Shown here piece by piece: positions 19,027 through 63,519 of a stretch of DNA of 64,000 bases. Numbering within the stretch: position 1 is the stretch's first letter; the number at the start of each line of letters is the position of its first letter. A program made the position numbers and the translations under genes. Below the pieces are notes generated by a model, which was not told where the DNA came from, did not search any database, and saw nothing but the letters and a program-made list of their open reading frames with translations. This stretch comes from Narcine bancroftii (taxonomy: Eukaryota): NCBI RefSeq assembly GCF_036971445.1, contig NC_091469.1, forward strand, positions 453,158,001 to 453,222,000, in the 5' to 3' direction.

Positions 19027-19666
19027 CAGTGGTTTTCAAACTTTTTCTTTCCACTCATATACCACCTTCAGTACTCCCTATGCCGTAGGTGCTCTGTGAT
19101 TAGTAAGGGATTACTGAAGGTGGTATGTGAGTGGAAAGAAAAAGTTTGAAAGCCACTGTTTTAATTGTCCCTAATTAGCTCGTTATGTGCACGGTTTCAT
19201 AACCCCCCCCCCAAAGGAAATGGGCCAATGGCAATTTTTCTCAAGCAAAATATTTCAGTAACAATCTGGTCTTGTCTAGAGCAATGGTTTTCAATCTTTT
19301 TTTCCCACTCACATACCACCTTCAGTATTCCCTATGCCGTAGGTGCTCTGTGATGAGTAAGGGATTACTGAAGGTGGTATGTGAGTGGAAAGAAAAAGTT
19401 TGAAAGCCTCTGTTTTAATTGTCCCTAATTGACTTGTTATGTGTACGGTTTCATAACCCCCCCCCCCCCCCCCCAAAGGAAATGGGCCAATGGCAATTTT
19501 TCTCAAGCAAAATATTTCAGTAACAATCTGGTCTTGTCTAGAGCAATGGTTTTCAATCTTTTTTTCCCACTCACATACCACCTTAAGCAATGTCTTACTA
19601 ATCACAGAGCACCTAAGGCATAGGATTCTTAAAGTGGTATGTGAATGGAAAGAAAAAGTTTGAAAA
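19027..19666. mobile_element. Compound hAT (Charlie-like) MITE, three mini-units and two spacers (internally duplicated variant)
   Basis: CAGTGGTTTTCAAAC-type TIRs bound each ~130-bp palindromic unit (19027-19158, 19282-19412, 19544-~19666); right end eroded. Confidence 0.85.
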
Positions 19667-20354: not shown

Positions 20355-21870
20355 AATGAGGTGTTGTGGGTCCATATAAGTCGTCCTTTACATGCACACC
20401 AAGGAACTTTGGGCTCTCCACTTTCTCCATGATGGAATTGTTGATGTGCAATGGAGAATGATTGGCCTTCATCCTCCTGAAGTCCACAATCATCTCTTTT
20501 GCCTTGTCCACAATGAGACTCAGGTTGCTATTCTCGCAGGATTTCACGAGCTGTTCAACCTCCTCTCTGTAACCTGACTCATCGTTGCTGGCAATAAGGC
20601 CAAGTACTGTTGGAAAACCTGCAAATCTAAACCAGTCTGCATCCAAACCATTTGAACTGAATCTAGCAGTACAGTCGTGAGTCAGCAGTATGAAAAGTAG
20701 TGGGCTGAGCACACTGTCCTGAGAAGCGCCAGTGGTGATGGGCCTAGGGATTTTGCTACTAACCCAGGGTGACTGTGGTCTTTTGGACAAGAAGTTCAGT
20801 GTTGAATGCCGTGCCTGGCGTATGAGATATCATTCTCTGGATCAGGATGGAGTGGGGGTTCAAAACTATATCATCATGAGCAGACTGGTTTAGGTGCAGG
20901 CTGGTTTAGGTGCAGGCTGGTTTAGGTGCAGGCTGGTTTAGGTGCAGGCTGGTTTAGGTGCAGGCTGGTTTAGGTGCAGGCTGGTTTAGGTGCAGGCTGG
21001 TTTAGGTGCAGGCTGGTTTAGGTGCAGGCTGGTTTAGGTGCAGGCTGGTTTAGGTGCAGGCTGGTTTAGGTGCAGGCTGGTTTAGGTGCAGGCTGGTTTA
21101 GGTGCAGGCTGGTTTAGGTGCAGGCTGGTTTAGGTGCAGGCTGGTTTAGGTGCAGGCTGGTTTAGGTGCAGGCTGGTTTAGGTGCAGGCTGGTTTAGGTG
21201 CAGGCTGGTTTAGGTGCAGGCTGGTTTAGGTGCAGGCTGGTTTAGGTGCAGGCTGGTTTAGGTGCAGGCTGGTTTAGGTGCAGGCTGGTTTAGGTGCAGG
21301 CTGGTTTAGGTGCAGGCTGGTTTAGGTGCAGGCTGGTTTAGGTGCAGGCTGGTTTAGGTGCAGGCTGGTTTAGGTGCAGGCTGGTTTAGGTGCAGGCTGG
21401 TTTAGGTGCAGGCTGGTTTAGGTGCAGGCTGGTTTAGGTGCAGGCTGGTTTAGGTGCAGGCTGGTTTAGGTGCAGGCTGGTTTAGGTGCAGGCTGGTTTA
21501 GGTGCAGGCTGGTTTAGGTGCAGGCTGGTTTAGGTGCAGGCTGGTTTAGGTGCAGGCTGGTTTAGGTGCAGGCTGGTTTAGGTGCAGGCTGGTTTAGGTG
21601 CAGGCTGGTTTAGGTGCAGGCTGGTTTAGGTGCAGGCTGGTTTAGGTGCAGGCTGGTTTAAATGAAAGGCAAACTGAAATGGGTCCAATGTGGCTGGATG
21701 GTGTGATTGGATACATTCCATGACCTCCCATTGCAAACATTTCATGATTGGAGAGGGCAGTGCCACTGGACAGACATCATTTAGTTCAGTTATTTGGCCA
21801 CCAGGAAGGTGATTTTTACTTTTAACTACGATGTGTCCCATACAATAAAAAAAAACTTCTGGCAATCCTG
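20355..21870 (-). mobile_element. Decayed Rex1-type RT fragment interrupted by a minisatellite
   Basis: PVAL.SPIMKC, LDPFQFAF, TGASQDSVLSPLLF.LLTHDC, DKAKEMIVDFRR, KFLGVH. Confidence 0.8.
20885..21660 (+). repeat. Perfect 16-bp minisatellite (CTGGTTTAGGTGCAGG) x about 48.5
   Basis: Directly visible; 776 bp with no variant units seen. Confidence 0.98.
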
Positions 21871-27254: not shown

Positions 27255-28280
27255 TTCAAGGTGACAACATAGGTAGACAGGATGGTGAAGAGGGCGTACA
27301 GCACTCTTGCCTTCAGTGGGCAGACAGGACACTGTGTACAATGGTTAGGACATCTTGTCGCAGCTGCACAAGATGTTGGTAAGACCTCACCTGGAATACT
27401 GTGTACTCTTCTAATCACTATACTAAAGGAAGGATGTGATTAAACTTGAGAAGGTGCACAAGGATTTACAGGGAATATTGCCAAGAATGGAGGCTTGAGT
27501 TATAGGAAGAGACTGGACATGATTGGACTGTTAATTTTTCCCCTGAAAGACAGGAGACTGAAATATGTCCTTATGCTGGCTGATAACAATCATGAGGAGT
27601 TGGGTAAAGTGGATTGTCACAGTTGTTTTCACAGGGCAAAGGAATCTCAATCTCTAAGATAAGCAGGATCTTAAGTGAAATTGAGAGATAAGGTTATGTG
27701 CATGCAAAAGGAACTATCAGAGAAGGTGGTAGAGACTAGAACAGTCACAACATTTAAGATATTTGGACAGATACATGGGTAACAAAAGTTTGGAGCAGTG
27801 GATTTCAAACTACCCCCTTAAACAAACATTTCACTTTAAGTAATCCCTATGCCATAAGTGCTCTGTGATTAGTAAGGGATTACTTAAGGTGGTATGTGAG
27901 TGGGAAGGGAAGGTTGAGAGCCACTGTTTTAATCGTACCTAATCGACTCATTATGCACATGGTTTCATAACTCCAAAGGAATTGGGCCAATTACATTTTT
28001 TTCTCAAGCAAAATATTTCAGTAACAATTGGGTCTAGAGCAGTGGTTCTCAACTTCCCTTCCCACTCTCATACCACTTAAGTAATCCCTTACCAATCACA
28101 GAGCACTTAAGGCGTAGGGGACTGCTTAACGTAGAAATGTAAGTTTAGTGAGGCAGTTTGAAAACCAATGGTTTAGAGGGCCATGAGCCAAATGCAGGCA
28201 AGTGGGACTAGCTCACAAAGTCACATTGGCCAGGTTGGTGAGTTGGGCTGAATGGCCTTTTCTGTGCAGCCTAACTCTAC
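27255..28280 (+). mobile_element. Older degraded CR1 3' fragment hosting a MITE
   Basis: LVRPHLEYCV remnant; CR1 3' UTR (gggactagctc...gggctgaatggcct) continues after the MITE. Confidence 0.75.
27796..28170. mobile_element. Compound hAT MITE with 8-bp TSD
   Basis: CAGTGG...CCAATG termini; flanks gtttggag (27788-27795) and gtttagag (28171-28178); two inverted mini-units around the shared spacer. Confidence 0.88.
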
Positions 28281-48580: not shown

Positions 48581-48970
48581 CAGTGGTTCTCAACCTTTTT
48601 CTTTCCACTCACATCCCACTTTAAGTATTCCCTATGCCATAGGTGATCAGTCAGGGATTGCTTAAGGTGGGATGTGGGTGGAAAGAAAAGGTTTAAAAAC
48701 CATTGTTTTAATCGTACCTAATTGGCTCGTTGCGTGCACAGTTTCATAACTCCAAAGGAAATGGGCCAATGGATGTTGTGGTAAAGTTGTATGAGACATT
48801 TTCTCAAGCAAAATATTTCAGTACCAATTGGGTCTAGAGCAGTGATTCCCATCCTTCCCTTCCCATTCACATACCACCTTAAGCAATCCCTTACTAATCA
48901 CAGAGCACCAATGGCATAGGGATTACTTAACGTGGTATGTGAGTGGAAAGAAAAAGGTTGAGAAACACTG
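48581..48970. mobile_element. Compound hAT MITE with 8-bp TSD
   Basis: TIRs CAGTGGTTCTCAACCTTTTTCTTTCCACTCAC...GTGAGTGGAAAGAAAAAGGTTGAGAAACACTG; TSD aactacat (48573-48580) / aactatat (48971-48978). Confidence 0.92.
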
Positions 48971-49814
48971 AACTATATATCTTTCATTGATGAAGTAACA
49001 GGGACAAAAATGTTCCCATCAAATAACTTATTTGCTTTTGTACATCAACTACCTTCATGATATGGGCAACGGCTACAATTTTACCGTAAATAAGTTTCAT
49101 TTTTGAGTGACACAAGAACCCGCAAATAATGTTACAGAATGTGCAGTTATAGCTGACAGGTCTGAACACTAACGCTTTTGGCGACTTATCAAATTCTCCA
49201 ACTGAATTCAAGTTTCTTTCATGACATATCACCAATATCAGTAAGTAAGATGAACCAATGAGATAAAACAAATAAAACTTTTCAACATTTACTTCACCCA
49301 CTGATCCTTAAAATAAACTTGCCAAAGTGGACTCAAAATTTCAGTTTATAAAATGTATATTAAATATGCATAATATAGTTTACATAAATTTACCACTGAA
49401 TTGCCTTGCACATCAGAGTAAATTCACTCCCATTATAACCATGAGCAAAAAGCCCTCTCCTCAACTATTTTTGCTTGCAATTAATATTTCAGTGCAACTG
49501 TTTTTTTTAAAACCAACCCTAAACCTTCTGAGGATATGCCAATCTCTACATGCCCCGTAAAAGTGATGATGAATTTTGCCTTTAAACCATTACTTCCATA
49601 ATGGCTTGAGACAGGGTTGGGGTTAGGAAAGAGAAAACTATGTTGGTGGTTACTCCAAGTGCACTTTTAAGATCATACAGAAAAATTACAAATTGTTATT
49701 GCCTAAAAAAGGGCATATTCCACAATTTGAATGTTGAGTGAATTTTTATGTGCTAGTATTGACCAAATAAAACAGGACAGCACAATTCACAACCTTTATG
49801 TTGTACTTGATTAT

Positions 49815-55016: not shown

Positions 55017-55950
55017 CTTGCTTTGACCAAGTCCACAGGCTGTGGTCTTGCTTTGACCAAGTCCACAGGCTGTGGTCTTGCTTTGACCAAATCCACAGGC
55101 TGTGGTCTTGCTTTGACCAAGTCCACAGGCTGTGGTCTATCTTTGACCAAGTCCACAGGCTGTGGTCTTGCTTTGACCAAATCCACAGGCTGTGGTCTTG
55201 CTTTGACCAAGTCCACAGGCTGTGGTCTTGCTTTGACCAAATCCACAGGCTGTGGTCTTGCTTTGACCAAGTCCACAGGCTGTGGTCTTGCTTTGACCAA
55301 ATCCACAGGCTGTGGTCTTGCTTTGACCAAATCCACAGGCTGTGGTCTTGCTTTGACCAAGTCCACACACATTGGTTTTGTTGTGACCAAGCTCACAATC
55401 AGTGCTCTTGCTGTGACAAAATCCACACACATTGGTCTTCCTTTAACCAAGCTTGCAGTCAGTGGTCTTGCTGTGACCGAGCTCACAGTTATTGATCTTG
55501 CTTTGACCAAGCTCACACATACTGGTCTTGTTGTGACTAAGCCACAGTCAGTGGTCTTGCTTTGACCAAGCCCAGATACAGTGGCCTTGCTGTGACAAAG
55601 CCGACACATATTGATCTTGCTGTGACCAAGCCCAGACACAGTGGCCTTACTGTGACCAAGCCTACACATACTGGTCTTGCTGTGACCAAACCCACAGTCA
55701 GTGGTCTTGCTTTGACCAAGCCCACACACAGTAGCCTTGCTGTGACCAAGCCCTCACACAGTGGTCTTGCTGTGACCAAGCCCACACACAGTGATTTTGC
55801 TGTGACCAAACCCACACACAGTGGTCTCGATGTGACCAAGCCCTCATACAGTGGTCTTGCTGTGACCAAGCCCTCACACAGTGGTCTTGCTTTGACCAAT
55901 CCCACACACAGTGGTGTTGCTGTGACCAAGCCCGCACACAGTGGTCTTGT
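55017..55950 (+). repeat. 30-bp minisatellite (CTTGCTTTGACCAAGTCCACAGGCTGTGGT), homogeneous to about 55367 and divergent after that
   Basis: About 31 units directly visible; gives 10-aa repeat ORFs in several frames. Confidence 0.97.
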
Positions 55951-57399
55951 TCCGTTAGCATCAGGGCCCATAATGTTTACTAGACTTTCTGTTTTTTTTT
56001 AAACTGGAGATTATTGGCAAGAAAATATATACAAAAGCTCAAAGGTAATTCAAGTAATTACATTTATTAAAAAGTTGGTTCTTTTAACCCAGATTTACAA
56101 ATTCTTAAAATGATTGATGAGAGATCTAAAAGGAACATTTTAAAGTGACATGAGGAAACTGGTGAAGGCAAGTTGCTCTGGGATTATTTGAGTAGACTGA
56201 GAACATCTGTGGCTGAGCTATGTGCCTACGAAGTGGCTTCAAATATCGGACAATAACAAAGGCCTCATATCTTTCTTGCGGTTTAAGGTGGAGAGCAAAA
56301 AGTGAAGAAAAATGACAGTTTTAAAATAGGAGTACATTTTTGGACATTCTTTCTTTATTCCAACATCATCATACCCGTCCCCCACCCTTCCGAGATTCCA
56401 GTTAGGATTACTGGGTCAAAGCATTAGGCCATTGGTCAGGGAGACTGGGGGAAACTGCAGTATGAGACTTTCCTGCTTGCAACCACAGCTATCCCATGAC
56501 ATCTATTAAAAAAAGCTCCAGTTATGTATCCTCGGGAAGCTCCAGAATTAGGTACGCTGAATCATGAAGTGAAAGCTGATGTTGGGTGTGTTTCTTTATC
56601 CACTGCCCATTTCCAGGTGGCTAAGCAGAGGGGAATGTTTCCTGTCATACGTAAAAGTACATTGTACTTACACACCAAAATCCTTCCTGCAGCTACATAG
56701 GTAGGTAAAGTACACTAACAAACAATAAGCACAAGTTAACGCACAAGACAGAAAAAGATAATAAACATAAAAGTATAGATAAATACTCACATTTGCAGTT
56801 AGTACAACACAAAATGTTAAGTTACAACAGTGCAGACAAGTTCTTAGGCTGGTCCTGGAGAAAGCCTCCTGTTTAGGGTGGTACAGGGACTTTCAAAATC
56901 TTGATAGCTGTTGGAAATAAACCATTCAGAGGTGCTGAACTATAGGCCTCTGTACCTCGTGCCTGGTGAGAAAGCGAGTGAGCATGGTGAAGGGGATCCT
57001 TAATGACGATGGCTACTTTTTTCAATGGATGGGAGATCAGCACCTGTGTTTGACTTAGTGAAACGCGAAAGCCTGCAGAAGCTGTGATTGTAGTAAAGAC
57101 ACACCAAAATGCTGGAGAAACTCAGAAGGTCTTTTCAGCATCCATAAAAAACAAGGATATGTGGCTGACATTTCAAGCCTGAGCCCTTCAAGGAATAAGT
57201 AGAATGAGCCAGAAGTTGGGTTTTCTCACTTCTGACCCTTCTGCACTAAATCCACTAAACATTCAACTTCTCTCGTTTGGTAACTCGAGTGACTAGGAAT
57301 GCAGAAGGCAACAGAAAATGACGTCCAGTGCAGGCACCATTGTAGACATCTGTATAAGACAATGCCTCAAGAAGGCAGCCTGCATCGTAAAGGACCCCT

Positions 57400-60300
57400 T
57401 GTAGTGCTATCGATCAATCACATTAGACAGAGTTGTGCCTCCGAGGTTAGTAGGACTGTGAGGTTGCTCGGTCTGGGGTTGGGGCACGGTGTCAGGTGCA
57501 ATTAGTGGGGCCAGTTGACCAGGGTTACCATGAGGGCATGTTGATTGGTTGGTTGAGGAGTTCCATGCACGAGCCAGGTCTCGGATGGAAACCGTTCCCT
57601 GCTGCCTATCCTGGTCCTCCACGTAAACATATTTGGGGTTCACATGGAGGAGATTGACCTTCTCGACCAGAGGGTCAGTCTTGTGGCATCTGATATGCCT
57701 CTGGAGCAGTACGGCTCCAGGGGTCGTCAGCTAGGATGGCAGTGTGGCACCCAATGCCGACTTCCTGGGGAAGGAAAAGAGCTTTTCATGCAGTGTCACA
57801 TTAGCAGCGGAACAGAAGAGGGATCTCATGGCATGCGGCACCTCAGGGAGGACAACTTGCTGCTGGGAGATGGGTAGGCCTTTCGACCTGAGGGCTAGGA
57901 GGACTGCCTTCCAGATGGTGGCGTTCTCCCTTTCTATCTAGCCGTTCCCCTGGGGGTTATAGCCCATGGTCCTGCTCGTGGCTATGCCCTTGGCCAGCAG
58001 GTACTAGCGCAGCTCCTCCCTCAGAAACGAGGATCCCCATTAGCTATGGATATAGCCGAGGTATCCAAAAGGAGTGAATAAGATATGCAGTGCCTTTATG
58101 AATGTGGCTGTAGTCATATCCGGACAGGGGATGGCAAAAGGGAAGCGGGAGTATTCATCAATGATATTCAGGAAGTATATGTTCCTGTTGGTGGACGGAA
58201 GAGGGCCCTTGAAATCTATGCTCAACTGCTCGAAGGGGCAGATGGCTTTGATAATGTGGGTTTTGTCTAGCTCCCCAATATCTTCAACCGAGTAGGGGAG
58301 ATTGTGGGCTCTAATAAAGTGGTAGAGCCTGGTGACCCTGGGATGGCAGAAGTTGTTGTGAAGGACTTGGAGGAGGTCCAACTGCACGTTGGCACATGTG
58401 CCATGGGGCAGAGCATCGGGAGGCTCGTTGAGCTTCCAGGGCCGGTACAAGATCTTGAAGTTGTAGGTGGATAGCTCAATTCTCCACCTCTTGCCGTTCT
58501 TAATTTTTCCCCACTGTTTGTTATTGAACATAAAAGTGACTGCATGTTGGTCAGTCAGCAGGGTGAATAGTTTTCCAGCCAGGTAGTGCCTCCAGTGGTA
58601 CTCAGCTTCCACTATGGCCTAGGCTTCCTTTTCGATGGCTGAATGCTAAAGTTAGGGGCTCTAGAAAGTTCGGGAAAAGAAAGCCACTGATCTGCCCACC
58701 TGCTTGATCGTGGCAGCCAGGGCAAAGTCAAACTCTCCACCTGAAATGGGAAGCATTCATCCACAGCACGCATTGCTGCCTTGGTGATGGGGAAAGGTAG
58801 TAGATTTCACCAGAGGGTGGGCTTTGTCCGCATAACTTGGGACCCACTGGGCGCAATACGAAAAGAACCTCAAGCACCTTTTCAGGGCCTTGAGGGTATG
58901 GGGCAATGGGAATTCCAACATGCAGTCAGGGTCAGACCCATTCTCCACCATGCAACCCAGCATGGCCAGCCATGAAGTACCGAACACGCAATTCTTTTGG
59001 TTATATGTTAGGTTGAGGCTCTTTGTGGCCTGGAGAAATTTCTGCAGGTTAGAGTCATGATCCTGCTGGTCTTGGCCGCAGATGGTCACATTGTCTAGGT
59101 GAGGAAGAGTGGCCTTGAGTCCATAGTCATCCACTATTCGGTCCATCTCCATCTGGAAGACAGAGACCCCATTAGTGACCCTGAAAGGGACTCGGAGGAA
59201 GTGGTAGAGGTGGCCGTCCACTTCGAAGGCAATGTATGGGGTGTCCTCCAGACAGATTGGGAGTTCGTGGTGGGCCAACTTGAGGTCAATGTTTGAGAAG
59301 ACCCGGAACTGGGCGATCTTGTTCACCATGTCAGCGATGCGGGAGTGGGTAGGCATCCAGCTAGGTAGATCGGTTTATGGTTTGGGTGTAGCCTGGCTCC
59401 ACCTTTAACAACCACCACCTGTGCCCTCCAGGGGCTGGTACTGGGTTCTATGATCCCCTCTGCCAGAAGTTGTTTGACTTCTGCTTCGATGAAGGCTTTG
59501 TATCACTATTGGCGATGATCTGCTTGCAGTCGGGGGTAAGGTTCTTGAACAAGGGTGGTGGTGGTTCCGAAGGTTAGGGAGACCACAGGTCATGTTCAGA
59601 GAGGGGGTCAAGAGGTTTAAGAATTTGCAGTTGCGGATCATGACAGGCGGGTGTGGGCTGTCAAACTGCATTTGGACACTCTTTAGCTGGCTCTGTGTGC
59701 AGAGCTGTGGCAAGATAAGGAGCTTAAAGTTCTCATACTCCATGCCCCGCACAGTCAGCGTCACGGTGCAACAGCCGTGGATCTCAGCATAATGGGATTA
59801 GGAGGCCAGGAAGACTTTATATTTTGCCAGGGTTACCACGAGGGAGTAGCACTGTACTGTGCCTGTGTGAATGAAGCTCTCCGTATTGAATAAGCAGTTT
59901 GTGACGTGACCATTTACTTACTCGATGTTCATCATGGCCCTGGCCAGTTGATGTGGGCTGTCCTGATCCAGGGCAATTGAGGCCAGCATCTGGTCGTTGT
60001 CTGAGTCGCTGCTATAGAGTTGGTTTGGGGGGCACCCACCAAGATGGCTGCCCCTATGCCGCGCACACAGTGCTGCTCCTTGCCGCCGGAAGTGGTGTTG
60101 ATCTGGATTGGCACTCCCATGGCCCTGCCGAACCATTTCCTACAACCGGAAGTGATGCCAGAGGTGAAGCCAGAAGTGACACGGTCCAAGATGGCAGCTG
60201 ATTTCGACTGGATGCGTCACTGCTGGAAGGGGGTTGGGACCTAAATACCTTCCCATGGTGTCTCTTCTTCCCCCAGGTGGAGCATATAGTTTCAGGCTGG

Positions 60301-61193
60301 GCAGTTCTTCCGGGGATGCTTCGTGTGTCCACAGAAGTAGCACTTTGGGTGCTCAATGGTGGCAGCAATGATCTGGAATCCAGTGTGCCAAGATGGCAGC
60401 ATCCATGCTCCCCATGTGGCGGCCGTGTTCTCCGAGAAGACCTCTGCATTCAGCTGCGTGGCTCAAGCATTTTAGCCAGGTTGACTACTCCTTATAGGCT
60501 TTGATTGCTCTTTTCCAGGAGTCTCTGTCTGATGTGATCAGACTTGAACCCAGCTACACGTGCATTGTGTATCAGGCAGCAGCAGAGACTTCTCTGCAGT
60601 TGCAGGCTCGCCCCAGCTCCCACAGGACCTGCATGTACTCATCGACTAACTCATCAGGTACTTGTCTTCGACTGTCCAGAAGGAATCTGGCATAGATGAC
60701 ATTCGTCGGGGTCCGATATCTTTCTGCAGGAGCTCCATTGCGGCCAAGTAGGTAGTGCAGTCCCTTATCATCTGGAAGACTCAGTGTCCAAGCTGAGTGA
60801 AGCGTTTGTCTTCCTCACTCTGTATGCTGTTGCATCTCATGAAAGCAATGAGGCATTGCAACCATTGATCAAATTTGACTGAGGCCTCCGGATCTTTAGG
60901 GTTGGTGTCCAGTTTATCTGCCTGTATTGCCTTGTCCATGGCCCAAAAATTTAAGGTGATTAAATTGTAGCACTATTGATCAACCACATTAGACAGAGAG
61001 TTGAGATTAATAGCCTTTAATCACCTTAAGATATCTCTCATGTTGCTGACCCGGATCCAAGGCAGGTACTGAGGGAGGAGTTTGGGTGTAACAGACTTTA
61101 TGGGGATTTCTGGGAGGGAGGAGACACAGGTTCAGGGGATGGGCCAGCTCATACCATATATACATACAGACCATACCCCTGAAGTGACTACTA
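57400..61193 (-). mobile_element. Decayed Ty3/Gypsy LTR retrotransposon (gag-PR-RT-RH-IN), probably Mag-related
   Basis: gag from ATG at 60939 (MDKAIQADKLDTNPKDPEASVKFDQWL), Zn-knuckle remnant CSTWGKKRH, PR remnant TESFIH, RT (FSNIDLKLAHH, YHFLRVPF.VTNG, HLDNVTI), RH (WRHYLAGK.FTLLTDQ), IN (SIDFKGPLP, IIDEYSRFPFA, YNPQGNG). LTR at about 60966-61193 plus a remnant at 57400-57434. Confidence 0.93.
60966..61193 (-). repeat. 5' LTR of the Gypsy element (about 228 bp; outer boundary approximate)
   Basis: Plus strand starts TGTAGCAC, matching tgtagtgctatcgatcaatcacattagacagag at 57400. Ends ...gtgactacta, an imperfect inverted terminus. ATTAAA on the element strand. Confidence 0.8.
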
Positions 61194-61464
61194 TCCAGAA
61201 AAGGGCGCTTGGAGGCCAGGTAGGGTTCTTGTTGGTGATGCATTTCAATTTAATTCACTGCAAAGCCCAGTTGAGTTTTTAAATATTTATTGATAAACAC
61301 AAAAGACTTGTTTTGATCGTAACGTTCCAATAATAATGATAACAAAAGTTGTAACGATATTCGGAGTAGACAACAAAGAATATTCGAGCCCTACTCACCC
61401 ACCTAGTCTTTAACTCATCACCCAAGTTGACGGGCTAATGAATCACGCCCAAACTCCTGCAATT

Positions 61465-63065
61465 GCACTAACCGCCCCCAGTACATGAAACTCACCAAGT
61501 AAGCGCCAACTATCCCCAGTATGCCAAACCCACCACACATGCCCCAATCATCCCTGGTACGTGAAACCTACTGCATAAACACAACTGTCCCCAGTATTCG
61601 AAACCCACCATGCAGGTGCCAACTGCCCCAGTACATGAAACCTATTGCACCGGCACTGACTTTCCCCAGTACACAAAACCCACCGCGCTTGCACCAACTG
61701 TCCCCAGTACACGAAACCCACCATGCCTGCACCAACCAACCCCAGTACACAAAACACATCACGCTTGCCCAAACCGTTCCCAGTACATTAAACTCACCAT
61801 GCCGGCACCAACAGTTCCCAGTATACGAAATCCACCGCACATGCACCAACCAACCCCAGTATACAAAATCCACTGTGCCTGCACCAACCTATCCCCCGTA
61901 CACGAAACCCACCGCACCTGCACCTACTGTCCCCAGTACACAAAACCCACTGCACCTGCACCAACCTGCCCCCAGTACAGGAAACCCCCCCTTGTACCTG
62001 CACCAACCTGTTCCCAGTACACAAAACCCACCACACCTGCACCAACCTGTCCCCAGTACACGAAACCCACCACTTATGCACCAACCAACCCCAGTACACA
62101 AAACCCACTGCGCTTGCACCTACATCCTCAGTACACGAAATCCACCGCACCTGCACCAACTGTCCCCAGTACACAAAACCCACCACACCTGCACCAACTG
62201 TCCCCAGTACACAAAACCCACTGTGCCTGCACCAACCTGTCCCCAGTATACAAAAACCACCACGCCTGCACCAACTGTCTCCAGTACATGAAACCCACTG
62301 CACCTGCACCAACTGTCCCCAGTATACGAAACCCACCATGCCTGCACCAACAGTTCCCAGTACACAAAACCCACAGCTTATGCACGAACCATCCCCAGTA
62401 CACGAAACCCACTGCGCCTGCTCCAACCGTCCCCAGTACACGAAACCCACCGCTTCTGCACTAACCGTCCCCAGTATGTGAAAACCACCACCCCTGCCCC
62501 AACCATCCCAAGTACGGGAAACTCACCACACATGTCGTTGCCAACCATCACCAGTGCACAAAATCCACCACGCCTGCTCCAACTGTCCCCAGTACACGAA
62601 ACCCACTGTGCCTGCACCAACCTGTCCCCAGTATACAAAAACCACCACGCCTGCACCAACTGTCTCCAGTACATGAAACCCACTGCACCTGCACCAACTG
62701 TCCCCAGTATACGAAACCCACCATGCCTGCACCAACAGTTCCCAGTACACAAAACCCACAGCTTATGCACGAACCATCCCCAGTACACGAAACCCACTGC
62801 GCCTGCTCCAACCGTCCCCAGTACACGAAACCCACCGCTTCTGCACTAACCGTCCCCAGTATGTGAAAACCACCACCCCTGCCCCAACCATCCCAAGTAC
62901 GGGAAACTCACCACACATGTCGTTGCCAACCATCACCAGTGCACAAAATCCACCACGCCTGCTCCAACTGTCCCCAGTACACGAAACCCACTGTGCCTGC
63001 ACCAACTGCCCCAGTACACTAAACCCGCCATGCATAGCCCAATTATCCCCAGTACGCAAAACCTG
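61465..63065 (+). repeat. About 38-39-bp degenerate minisatellite (ccccagtacacgaaacccaccgcacctgcaccaactgt) with a 385-bp higher-order duplication
   Basis: About 40 units; identical variant blocks recur at 62221, 62606 and 62991 (spacing 385). Confidence 0.95.
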
Positions 63066-63519
63066 ACATGCATGCACCAAACAACCAAAGAAAATAGCGC
63101 ATGCACAGATGCAACATGGTACTGAAAAGGGGCTGCAACTGAACACTACCTCTTAGTTCAGGAAGAGTTTTTAATCCAGTGCCTATCAGGATCTTCAATC
63201 TCCCCTTATTACTCTAACCAAACCATAAATTAGTGCAAGCTTGCATGCACTTTTGAAAGATTTTTTTCCCATTTGCTATCAGCAACTGTGAACAATTATC
63301 TATCTGTCCTTTTATATTTATTATCCTTTTTCTGCCTTGGCATATTGTGGTAATTTAATATATACTACTGTAGTTGGTGTAACTTTTGTTTGGTTGTAGT
63401 AAGTGAGAATTTCAGTACATCTGTGCAATGTGCTTGTATGACAATAAACTCTCATTACTCATTTATCTTCTCAATCTGGAACTGTTTAATGATAAACACA
63501 CATTGGTTCGCCACAGGCT

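Follow-up and report, generated by a model that had tools for sequence, protein, structure and literature searches.

The Gypsy element described here, a dead copy without a chromodomain in the genome of Narcine bancroftii, carries a primer-binding site (PBS) that is the complement of its own long terminal repeat (LTR), and we consider it probable that the clade to which it belongs primes itself with a long 5' RNA fragment. As far as can be judged from sequence, a long fragment is the likely primer, and not a short one of the Tf1 type. Self-priming through an LTR/PBS complement, as proposed in the initial annotation of this DNA, is well supported by the complement itself, by covariation and by aberrant junctions in a young sister family.

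The window element and its primer-binding site

The element lies on the minus strand of the window, i.e., the whole stretch of 64,000 nucleotides that was analyzed, where it spans positions 61175 to 57400 and is flanked by AGGGG duplications. Its parts are as follows.

61176..61180, minus strand: 5' target-site duplication AGGGG, from the sequence; 5-bp duplications also occur at other copies of the family
60966..61175, minus strand: 5' LTR of 210 nt (about 210-240 nt in the family, TGTGG..CTACA), from the sequence and family copies
61097..61102, minus strand: TATA-like element predicted by motif, CATAAA in the window copy and TATAAA in many copies
61067..61072, minus strand: initiator-like TCAGTA, by motif; transcription, and with it the primer, is predicted to begin at its A (61070), judging from footprints in the sister family
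61016..61029, minus strand: LTR arm TTAAGGTGATTAAA, predicted 3' end of the self-primer with a predicted cut after 61016, from complement and covariation
61021-61016, minus strand: poly(A)-signal-like ATTAAA closing the LTR arm, from the sequence
60965..61015, minus strand: 51-nt loop (rest of R, U5 and one spacer A), its start predicted to be paired in a second helix
60951..60964, minus strand: PBS TTTAATCACCTTAA, complement of the LTR arm and of non-TGG type, from the sequence
57445..60939, minus strand: decayed gag-pol with stops, frameshifts and deletions, from the sequence
within 59374-58760, minus strand: reverse transcriptase (RT) remnant, from domain remnants in gag-pol
within 58618-58043, minus strand: RNase H and integrase core remnants, from domain remnants in gag-pol
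57400..57437, minus strand: 3' LTR remnant of 38 nt (U5 end), from the sequence
57395..57399, minus strand: 3' target-site duplication AGGGG, from the sequence

The LTR had been assigned correctly, with the 5-bp AGGGG at both ends and with other copies that carry the same LTR twice together with a polypurine tract. It ends in ...CTACA at 60966, followed by a single A, the PBS and, at 60939, the gag ATG, whose translation MDKAIQADKLDT.. is similar to the N-termini of related polyproteins. The window copy has lost the integrase end, the polypurine tract and most of the 3' LTR. Across its family and clade, LTRs with TG..CA ends, a target-site duplication, a polypurine tract and the order gag-PR-RT-RH-IN are those of a Ty3/Gypsy element, and Ty3 Gag-Pol is the top solved-structure match of the clade profile. 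Where sequence has been deleted in the window copy (57445-57437), the end of the integrase now abuts the 3' LTR at a point about 10 nt past the predicted cut. Misdirection of the first strand transfer could account for this, as could a deletion at a later time.

The two 14-mers on the minus strand, at 61029-61016 (TTAAGGTGATTAAA) and 60964-60951 (TTTAATCACCTTAA), are exact reverse complements, and the 14-bp stem that they form encloses a 51-nt loop and is extendable on neither side by Watson-Crick pairs. Apart from two within repeats at 19034-19400, the window contains no other perfect inverted repeat of 14 bp or more whose loop is at most 100 nt, and the chance expectation of such a repeat in the window is about 0.02 by an arithmetic estimate; the folding z of the stem-loop is -2.3. 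A chance inverted repeat in a single decayed copy, for which only the AT-richness of the arms speaks, has a negligible probability and is refuted by the family-wide and clade-wide covariation described below. Other repeats in the window comprise tandem arrays with units of 16, 30 and 38 bp at 20880-21660, 55017-55949 and 61464-63080, respectively, the last of these about 290 bp upstream of the element, and a MITE-like short repeat family with inverted arms (19034-19624, 27803-28119 and 48581-48990).

The claim that the element lacks a tRNA primer site was borne out by an incomplete host set of 30 tRNA loci with 28 distinct calls (one of them spuriously long) and 14 anticodons, among which the best run along the window PBS was 5 nt with Watson-Crick pairs and 9 nt with G-U pairs. 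The CCA ends of these 28 calls matched the PBS over at most 1 nt, and a wobble-tolerant PBS pattern combined with one T-arm motif had 0 genome-wide matches. As a control, TGG stands within 5 nt of the LTR end in all five Mag-like loci examined in the same genome, and the window element has no such TGG.

Covariation of the LTR arm and the primer-binding site

The covariation of LTR and PBS that the initial annotation had put forward for checking was found, i.e., pairing is kept with differing letters both within the family and across the clade. In the 3.3-Gb genome the window family comprises 1954 candidates, 40 of which were scored. In twenty copies retrieved at length, the LTRs measure about 210-240 nt and both contain the arm, and a polypurine tract is present; the LTR pairs are 75-89% identical where alignable, and the family is therefore old. 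Its nearest proteins come from rays and sharks. The stem is perfect in 14 of 30 copies and 399 of 420 cells are paired, the window copy included; since these 30 copies were chosen by similarity to the window, the numbers describe the state of the family and not present selection. The emphasis on a perfect stem in a heavily decayed copy was thus correct as to the perfection and overstated as a sign of present function. A reading of the perfect stem as current selection was rejected on these counts and because the arms contain no CpG, which explains their slow decay. One base pair of the stem, first seen altered on both sides in a single copy, has changed in a subfamily, for which 56 genome-wide pattern matches represent 30 loci: 26 are changed on both sides, 3 on the PBS side only and 1 on the LTR side only. 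The 26 double-changed copies descend from a single change in the subfamily and do not count as separate events.

Scans of metagenome and MAG contigs supplied 88 related loci, and 94 were processed in all. Of these, 61 matched the gag start and 6 had too little upstream sequence, leaving 55 loci, near-identical copies included. A perfect complement of at least 11 nt was present upstream of gag in 43 of the 55 versus 1 of 1091 control windows from coding regions. On a second look, 5 of the 12 misses pair at 12-13 of 13 positions with their own 5' or 3' LTR; L082 has an arm visible by eye at the contig end, and 3 further misses have no gag start on the contig. No complement was found at the remaining three misses, L088, L094 and L126. 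In L115 and L116 the PBS pairs with the LTR over 13 nt and is offset from the LTR end by a bulge. Several animal-type Gypsy elements (L137-L144) lay within contigs filed as bacterial MAGs and probably represent host contamination; scans of viral contigs yielded no relative.

A further comparison used 21 distinct types, hand-picked after they had passed the perfect-match test, so that the absence of G-U pairs among them is partly a matter of selection. Positions 1-13 are all Watson-Crick paired, with up to four pair types per position, and pairing over 12 nt is complete for 21 of 21 own arms and for 0 of 420 cross pairs. The geometry is fixed as LTR-CA, one A, then TTT: CAA directly precedes the PBS in all types, AAA closes the LTR arm in all of them, and GCC or ACC comes next in 17. 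Loops measure 24-66 nt, and the nucleotides just past the arm are predicted to be paired in 16 of the 21 types versus about 4 expected from shuffles.

These types also bear on the suggestion that the stem mainly hides the 5' poly(A) signal and that an unknown host RNA or tRNA fragment serves as the primer. Retroviruses are known to need their 5' poly(A) signal hidden, and AATAAA or ATTAAA ends the arm in 15 of the 21 types (L053 counted). However, the hexamer is missing in the other 6 and the AAA before the junction is nonetheless invariant; no tRNA match was found in the host set, and a primer acting in trans would leave no edge at the initiator of the element itself, as is described below for the sister family. 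Moreover, because the 21 PBSs differ and each tracks its own LTR, no shared host primer is possible, i.e., one host RNA could not follow all of them. We regard this explanation as very improbable; the stem could hide the 5' poly(A) signal as a second role alongside priming.

Aberrant junctions and the length of the primer

Self-priming may proceed as follows. Transcription would start at the initiator-like site, and the 5' fragment of the transcript would fold onto the PBS and be cut after the ..AAA of the arm, just before RCC. The RNase H of the element is a candidate nuclease by analogy with Tf1, whose 11-nt primer is reportedly cut by the RNase H domain of its RT. The freed 3' end would then be extended over U5, giving strong-stop DNA of about 50 nt, and the first strand transfer would use the short R between the cut and the poly(A) site. 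During plus-strand synthesis the whole primer would be copied, and the arm would thereby rewrite the PBS in every cycle, which would keep the two in perfect Watson-Crick register. If the element's own RNA is the primer, plus-strand copying should occasionally continue past the paired 14 nt and take in LTR sequence that lies upstream of the arm. The junction expected from such copying, which was sought after a lead from a loose contig end, consists of U5, the A and the PBS followed by the reverse complement of the upstream LTR.

The junction was sought in a young sister family in the same genome (L051-L056, e.g., G000:C16:166953000-166961000). This family is very abundant, with LTRs that are 99-100% identical and intact open reading frames of about 1450 aa in which a repeat rich in Ala and Thr separates gag from protease, and by eye its reading frame is nearly identical to a protein labeled Narcine bancroftii. 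Both of its arms differ in letters from those of the window family and still pair over 14-16 nt. In the 240-nt LTR of L053, which is used for numbering, the arm occupies nt 179-192, a TATA-like site is at nt 108 and the A of a TCATTC initiator is at nt 141; the initiator motif follows the INR consensus as worded in a passage of PMC3601003. Loose contig ends at L053:1781 suggest another subfamily with a different arm.

Genome-wide, 111 junctions of the sister family were found versus 0 in the control, and 98 of them were examined. In the first type (20 of 98 loci; type a), the 5' LTR is complete and the inverted copy is partial. Sixteen of these loci jump into the interior of the element, representing 15 independent events, many with 1-7 nt of microhomology. 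The inverted copies end at nt 103, 137, 138, 138, 140, 141, 142, 143, 146, 149, 151, 155, 158, 163 and 164, so that 14 of 15 ends lie at nt 137 or later and 7 within 137-143, around the initiator-like A at nt 141. The 4 loci without an interior jump end at nt 14, 80, 118 and 131; for all 19 partial events, the 7 ends in 137-143 correspond to a scan p of about 7e-4 (any 7-nt window). Duplications of 5 bp with at most one mismatch flank 9 of 9 loci in which both ends are visible. The edge at nt 137-143 is the prediction of copying a primer that comprises nt 141-192 (about 52 nt). By analogy, the primer of the window family is predicted to measure 55-62 nt, namely 55 nt in the window copy and about 62 nt in copies without its 7-nt deletion. 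The window family itself provided 3 junctions of U5, PBS and inverted LTR, of type c in two cases and of type b in one as defined below, and 0 of the 3 bears a primer-end footprint.

In type b (27 of 98 loci), a full LTR is joined to inverted nt 1-192, with target-site duplications in 20 of 27. Having arisen by fold-back, these palindromes say nothing about which primer was used. In examples such as L205, L206, L208 and L218 of the young family and L303 of the window family, both ends are U3 ends. The inverted copy passes the LTR start into the polypurine tract or the interior in L280, L271, L295 and L297, running through the polypurine tract in L280 and, in the type b loci L295 and L297, reaching interior sequence about 95-150 nt beyond the LTR start. 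Type c (50 of 98) combines a partial U5 side with a full inverted copy; 42 of these loci join the interior, and 15 of 16 checkable ones have target-site duplications. With two duplicate pairs included, 41 of the 42 interior-joined ends lie at nt 179-222 (23 at nt 193 or beyond, 18 inside the arm) and one at nt 133; as a possible marker of the cut they are blurred, since the 18 stop 1-14 nt inside the arm and not cleanly at nt 193. Such products fit short strong-stop DNA or opening of the hairpin by the host. The last of the 98 loci is complex. Overall, the inverted copy reaches the LTR start in 77 of 98 junctions, and because DNA fold-back can explain these full-length copies, they are uninformative with respect to the primer. 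Inversion of the loop between the arms was rejected as a source of the junctions, as 0 of 98 run from an inverted loop into leader and gag.

Two other forms of self-priming have to be weighed against this edge. The primer might instead come from the 3' LTR, whose arm would be cut either in the same RNA or in one packaged with it, and the RNA would then be circularized or primed in trans. The arm is indeed present in both LTRs, the inverted copies of L295 and L297 run via U3 and the polypurine tract into the interior, and type c has ends that stop at the arm start, nt 179. Yet U3 lies upstream of the 3' copy, so that no edge at nt 137-143 is predicted, and long runs make up only 2 of 98 junctions; we therefore judge this source of the primer to be unlikely. 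Somewhat less likely still is the strict Tf1 geometry, in which the transcript starts at the arm and the primer has just about 14 nt. For Tf1/sushi elements, the text consulted of bioRxiv 2022.12.06.519325 equates the transcription start with the primer 5' end; 41 of the 42 type c ends stay at or after nt 179, and a strict TATA 80-100 nt upstream is missing in most invertebrate relatives. However, the primer-copy ends cluster at a TCATTC that matches the initiator exactly; this site lies about 38 nt upstream of the arm and 33 nt after a TATA-like site. In the manner of Tf1, the initial annotation had the transcript begin at the arm (about 61029); this was not supported, as motifs put the likely start of the window element at 61070 and the sister-family footprints likewise place the primer 5' end upstream of the arm. 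A long primer from the 5' LTR remains our preferred reading.

Relation to known self-priming elements and placement of the clade

The broader reading is that a widespread animal Gypsy clade (more than 1000 database proteins, with shark/ray, cnidarian, nematode, crustacean and mollusc labels) primes without tRNA, independently of Tf1/sushi: by a capped 5' fragment of about 50-60 nt and a conserved AAA|RCC cut overlapping the poly(A) signal, with the PBS rewritten in each cycle and failure products (LTR palindromes and primer-bearing deletions) fossilized by the hundred in a vertebrate genome. On balance we lean slightly toward it. If true, a large non-chromoviral animal clade would represent another independent loss of the tRNA primer, which bears on the question of whether tRNA priming is ancestral. 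Self-primed elements would presumably escape silencing by tRNA fragments, palindromic insertions would be a cost of the mechanism, and integrated failure products would allow the length of a primer to be read from a genome assembly. Annotation tools that require a tRNA site will miss or misclassify such elements.

In Tf1 and Tf2 of S. pombe, Tj1 of S. japonicus and the Tf1/sushi chromoviruses, a cut-off 5' segment of the mRNA acts as the primer, and these are likewise Ty3/Gypsy elements with a PBS complementary to the R region of their own LTR (passages of PMC4600332 and PMC5341516); at the 3' end of Tf1 cDNA, a copied primer site is often retained (PMC11042837, in part). The window clade differs by its separate RT clade and the lack of a chromodomain or SH3_Tf2-1 domain, by an arm whose last letters before RCC are a poly(A)-signal-like AAA, and by a primer of apparently about 52 nt, with only the last 14 nt paired, compared with Tf1/sushi primers that begin at the transcript start (bioRxiv 2022.12.06.519325, in part). 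In a crude test of the 21 types, duplexes between PBS-adjacent sequence and the LTR downstream of the primer, as in the three-duplex "pretzel" of the Tf1/sushi group, did not rise above the cross-family background (own versus cross-family energies of -4.9 versus -4.3 [sd 2.2] and -3.3 versus -3.6 [sd 2.4] kcal/mol).

Plant self-primers have been predicted in Tcn1 (a chromovirus) and TAR (Ty1/copia, including Houba and Osr-1) by a rule that asks for 10 bp or more of complementarity between the LTR and a site 0-5 bp behind it, and tRNA primers are listed for plant non-chromoviruses (relevant parts of PMC6317226). The window element agrees with this rule, with the difference of superfamily or lineage. 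The Conserved Hairpin Site of fungal GalEa Copia elements and bivalve TRIMs likewise comes without a tRNA site and with inverted repeats near the primer position, but both arms are internal there, whereas one arm of the window element lies in the LTR (PMC6934838, as far as its available text goes). The literature consulted, in portions, treats self-priming as a hallmark of Tf1/sushi chromoviruses, plus predicted plant Copia cases. No description of self-priming in a non-chromoviral animal Gypsy clade was found in the literature searched, outside of which lay Repbase, Dfam, GyDB and subscription journals; the palindromic self-priming attributed by the initial annotation to insect Gypsy lineages could not be traced to any report there. 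Cigr-1, of about 4.2 kb with LTRs of about 245 bp and a single ORF, resembles the window family. The Cigr-1 clade (Ciona, molluscs) and MolGy1-16 are, like the window clade, marine metazoan and non-chromoviral, in a comparison by description only (PMC6238403, in part). Primer sites are not mentioned in the available parts of that paper, one supplement row of which puts Cigr-1 beside "Mag," and the supplements searched contained no RT motif match.

The designation of the element as non-chromoviral is supported by domains and by phylogeny. Neither the chromodomain PF00385 nor PF24626 (SH3_Tf2-1), both of which are carried by fish chromoviruses, matched any of 5 clade proteins at E<=0.05, and neither is listed among the 120 best clade-profile matches. 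The profile retrieved 1005 proteins at E<=1e-100 among 7995 scored, a count to which more distant elements may contribute; the labels carried by its best matches include Trichuris, Actinostola and Armadillidium, and Plakobranchus and Petrolisthes are further labels among the related proteins. ESM Atlas returned generic RT clusters only, and Rfam nothing near the gathering score. Of 16 places in the genome marked by a Pfam Chromo search, the 3 that were retrieved contained no chromovirus RT; the SH3_Tf2-1 search pointed to one decayed sushi-like copy (L185).

The RT-RH tree has 47 rows from few lineages, with CsRN1, errantiviruses, Cigr-1 and MolGy outside the sample, and is unrooted because the 6 BEL/Pao loci intended as the outgroup had no RT match. 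It places 27 clade rows on one side of a 100/100 branch and 9 chromodomain-bearing fish rows, also at 100/100, on a separate branch. The long branch of the clade is also apart from 4 integrase-first (Gmr1-like) rows and from 5 rows that we take to be Mag-like on account of their motifs. The label "Mag-like" given to the window element is not supported, since the clade is separated at 100/100 from the sampled Mag-like rows, which carry ordinary TGG primer sites. Many decayed elements with the integrase before the RT (Gmr1-like; L178-L192) are also present in the genome.
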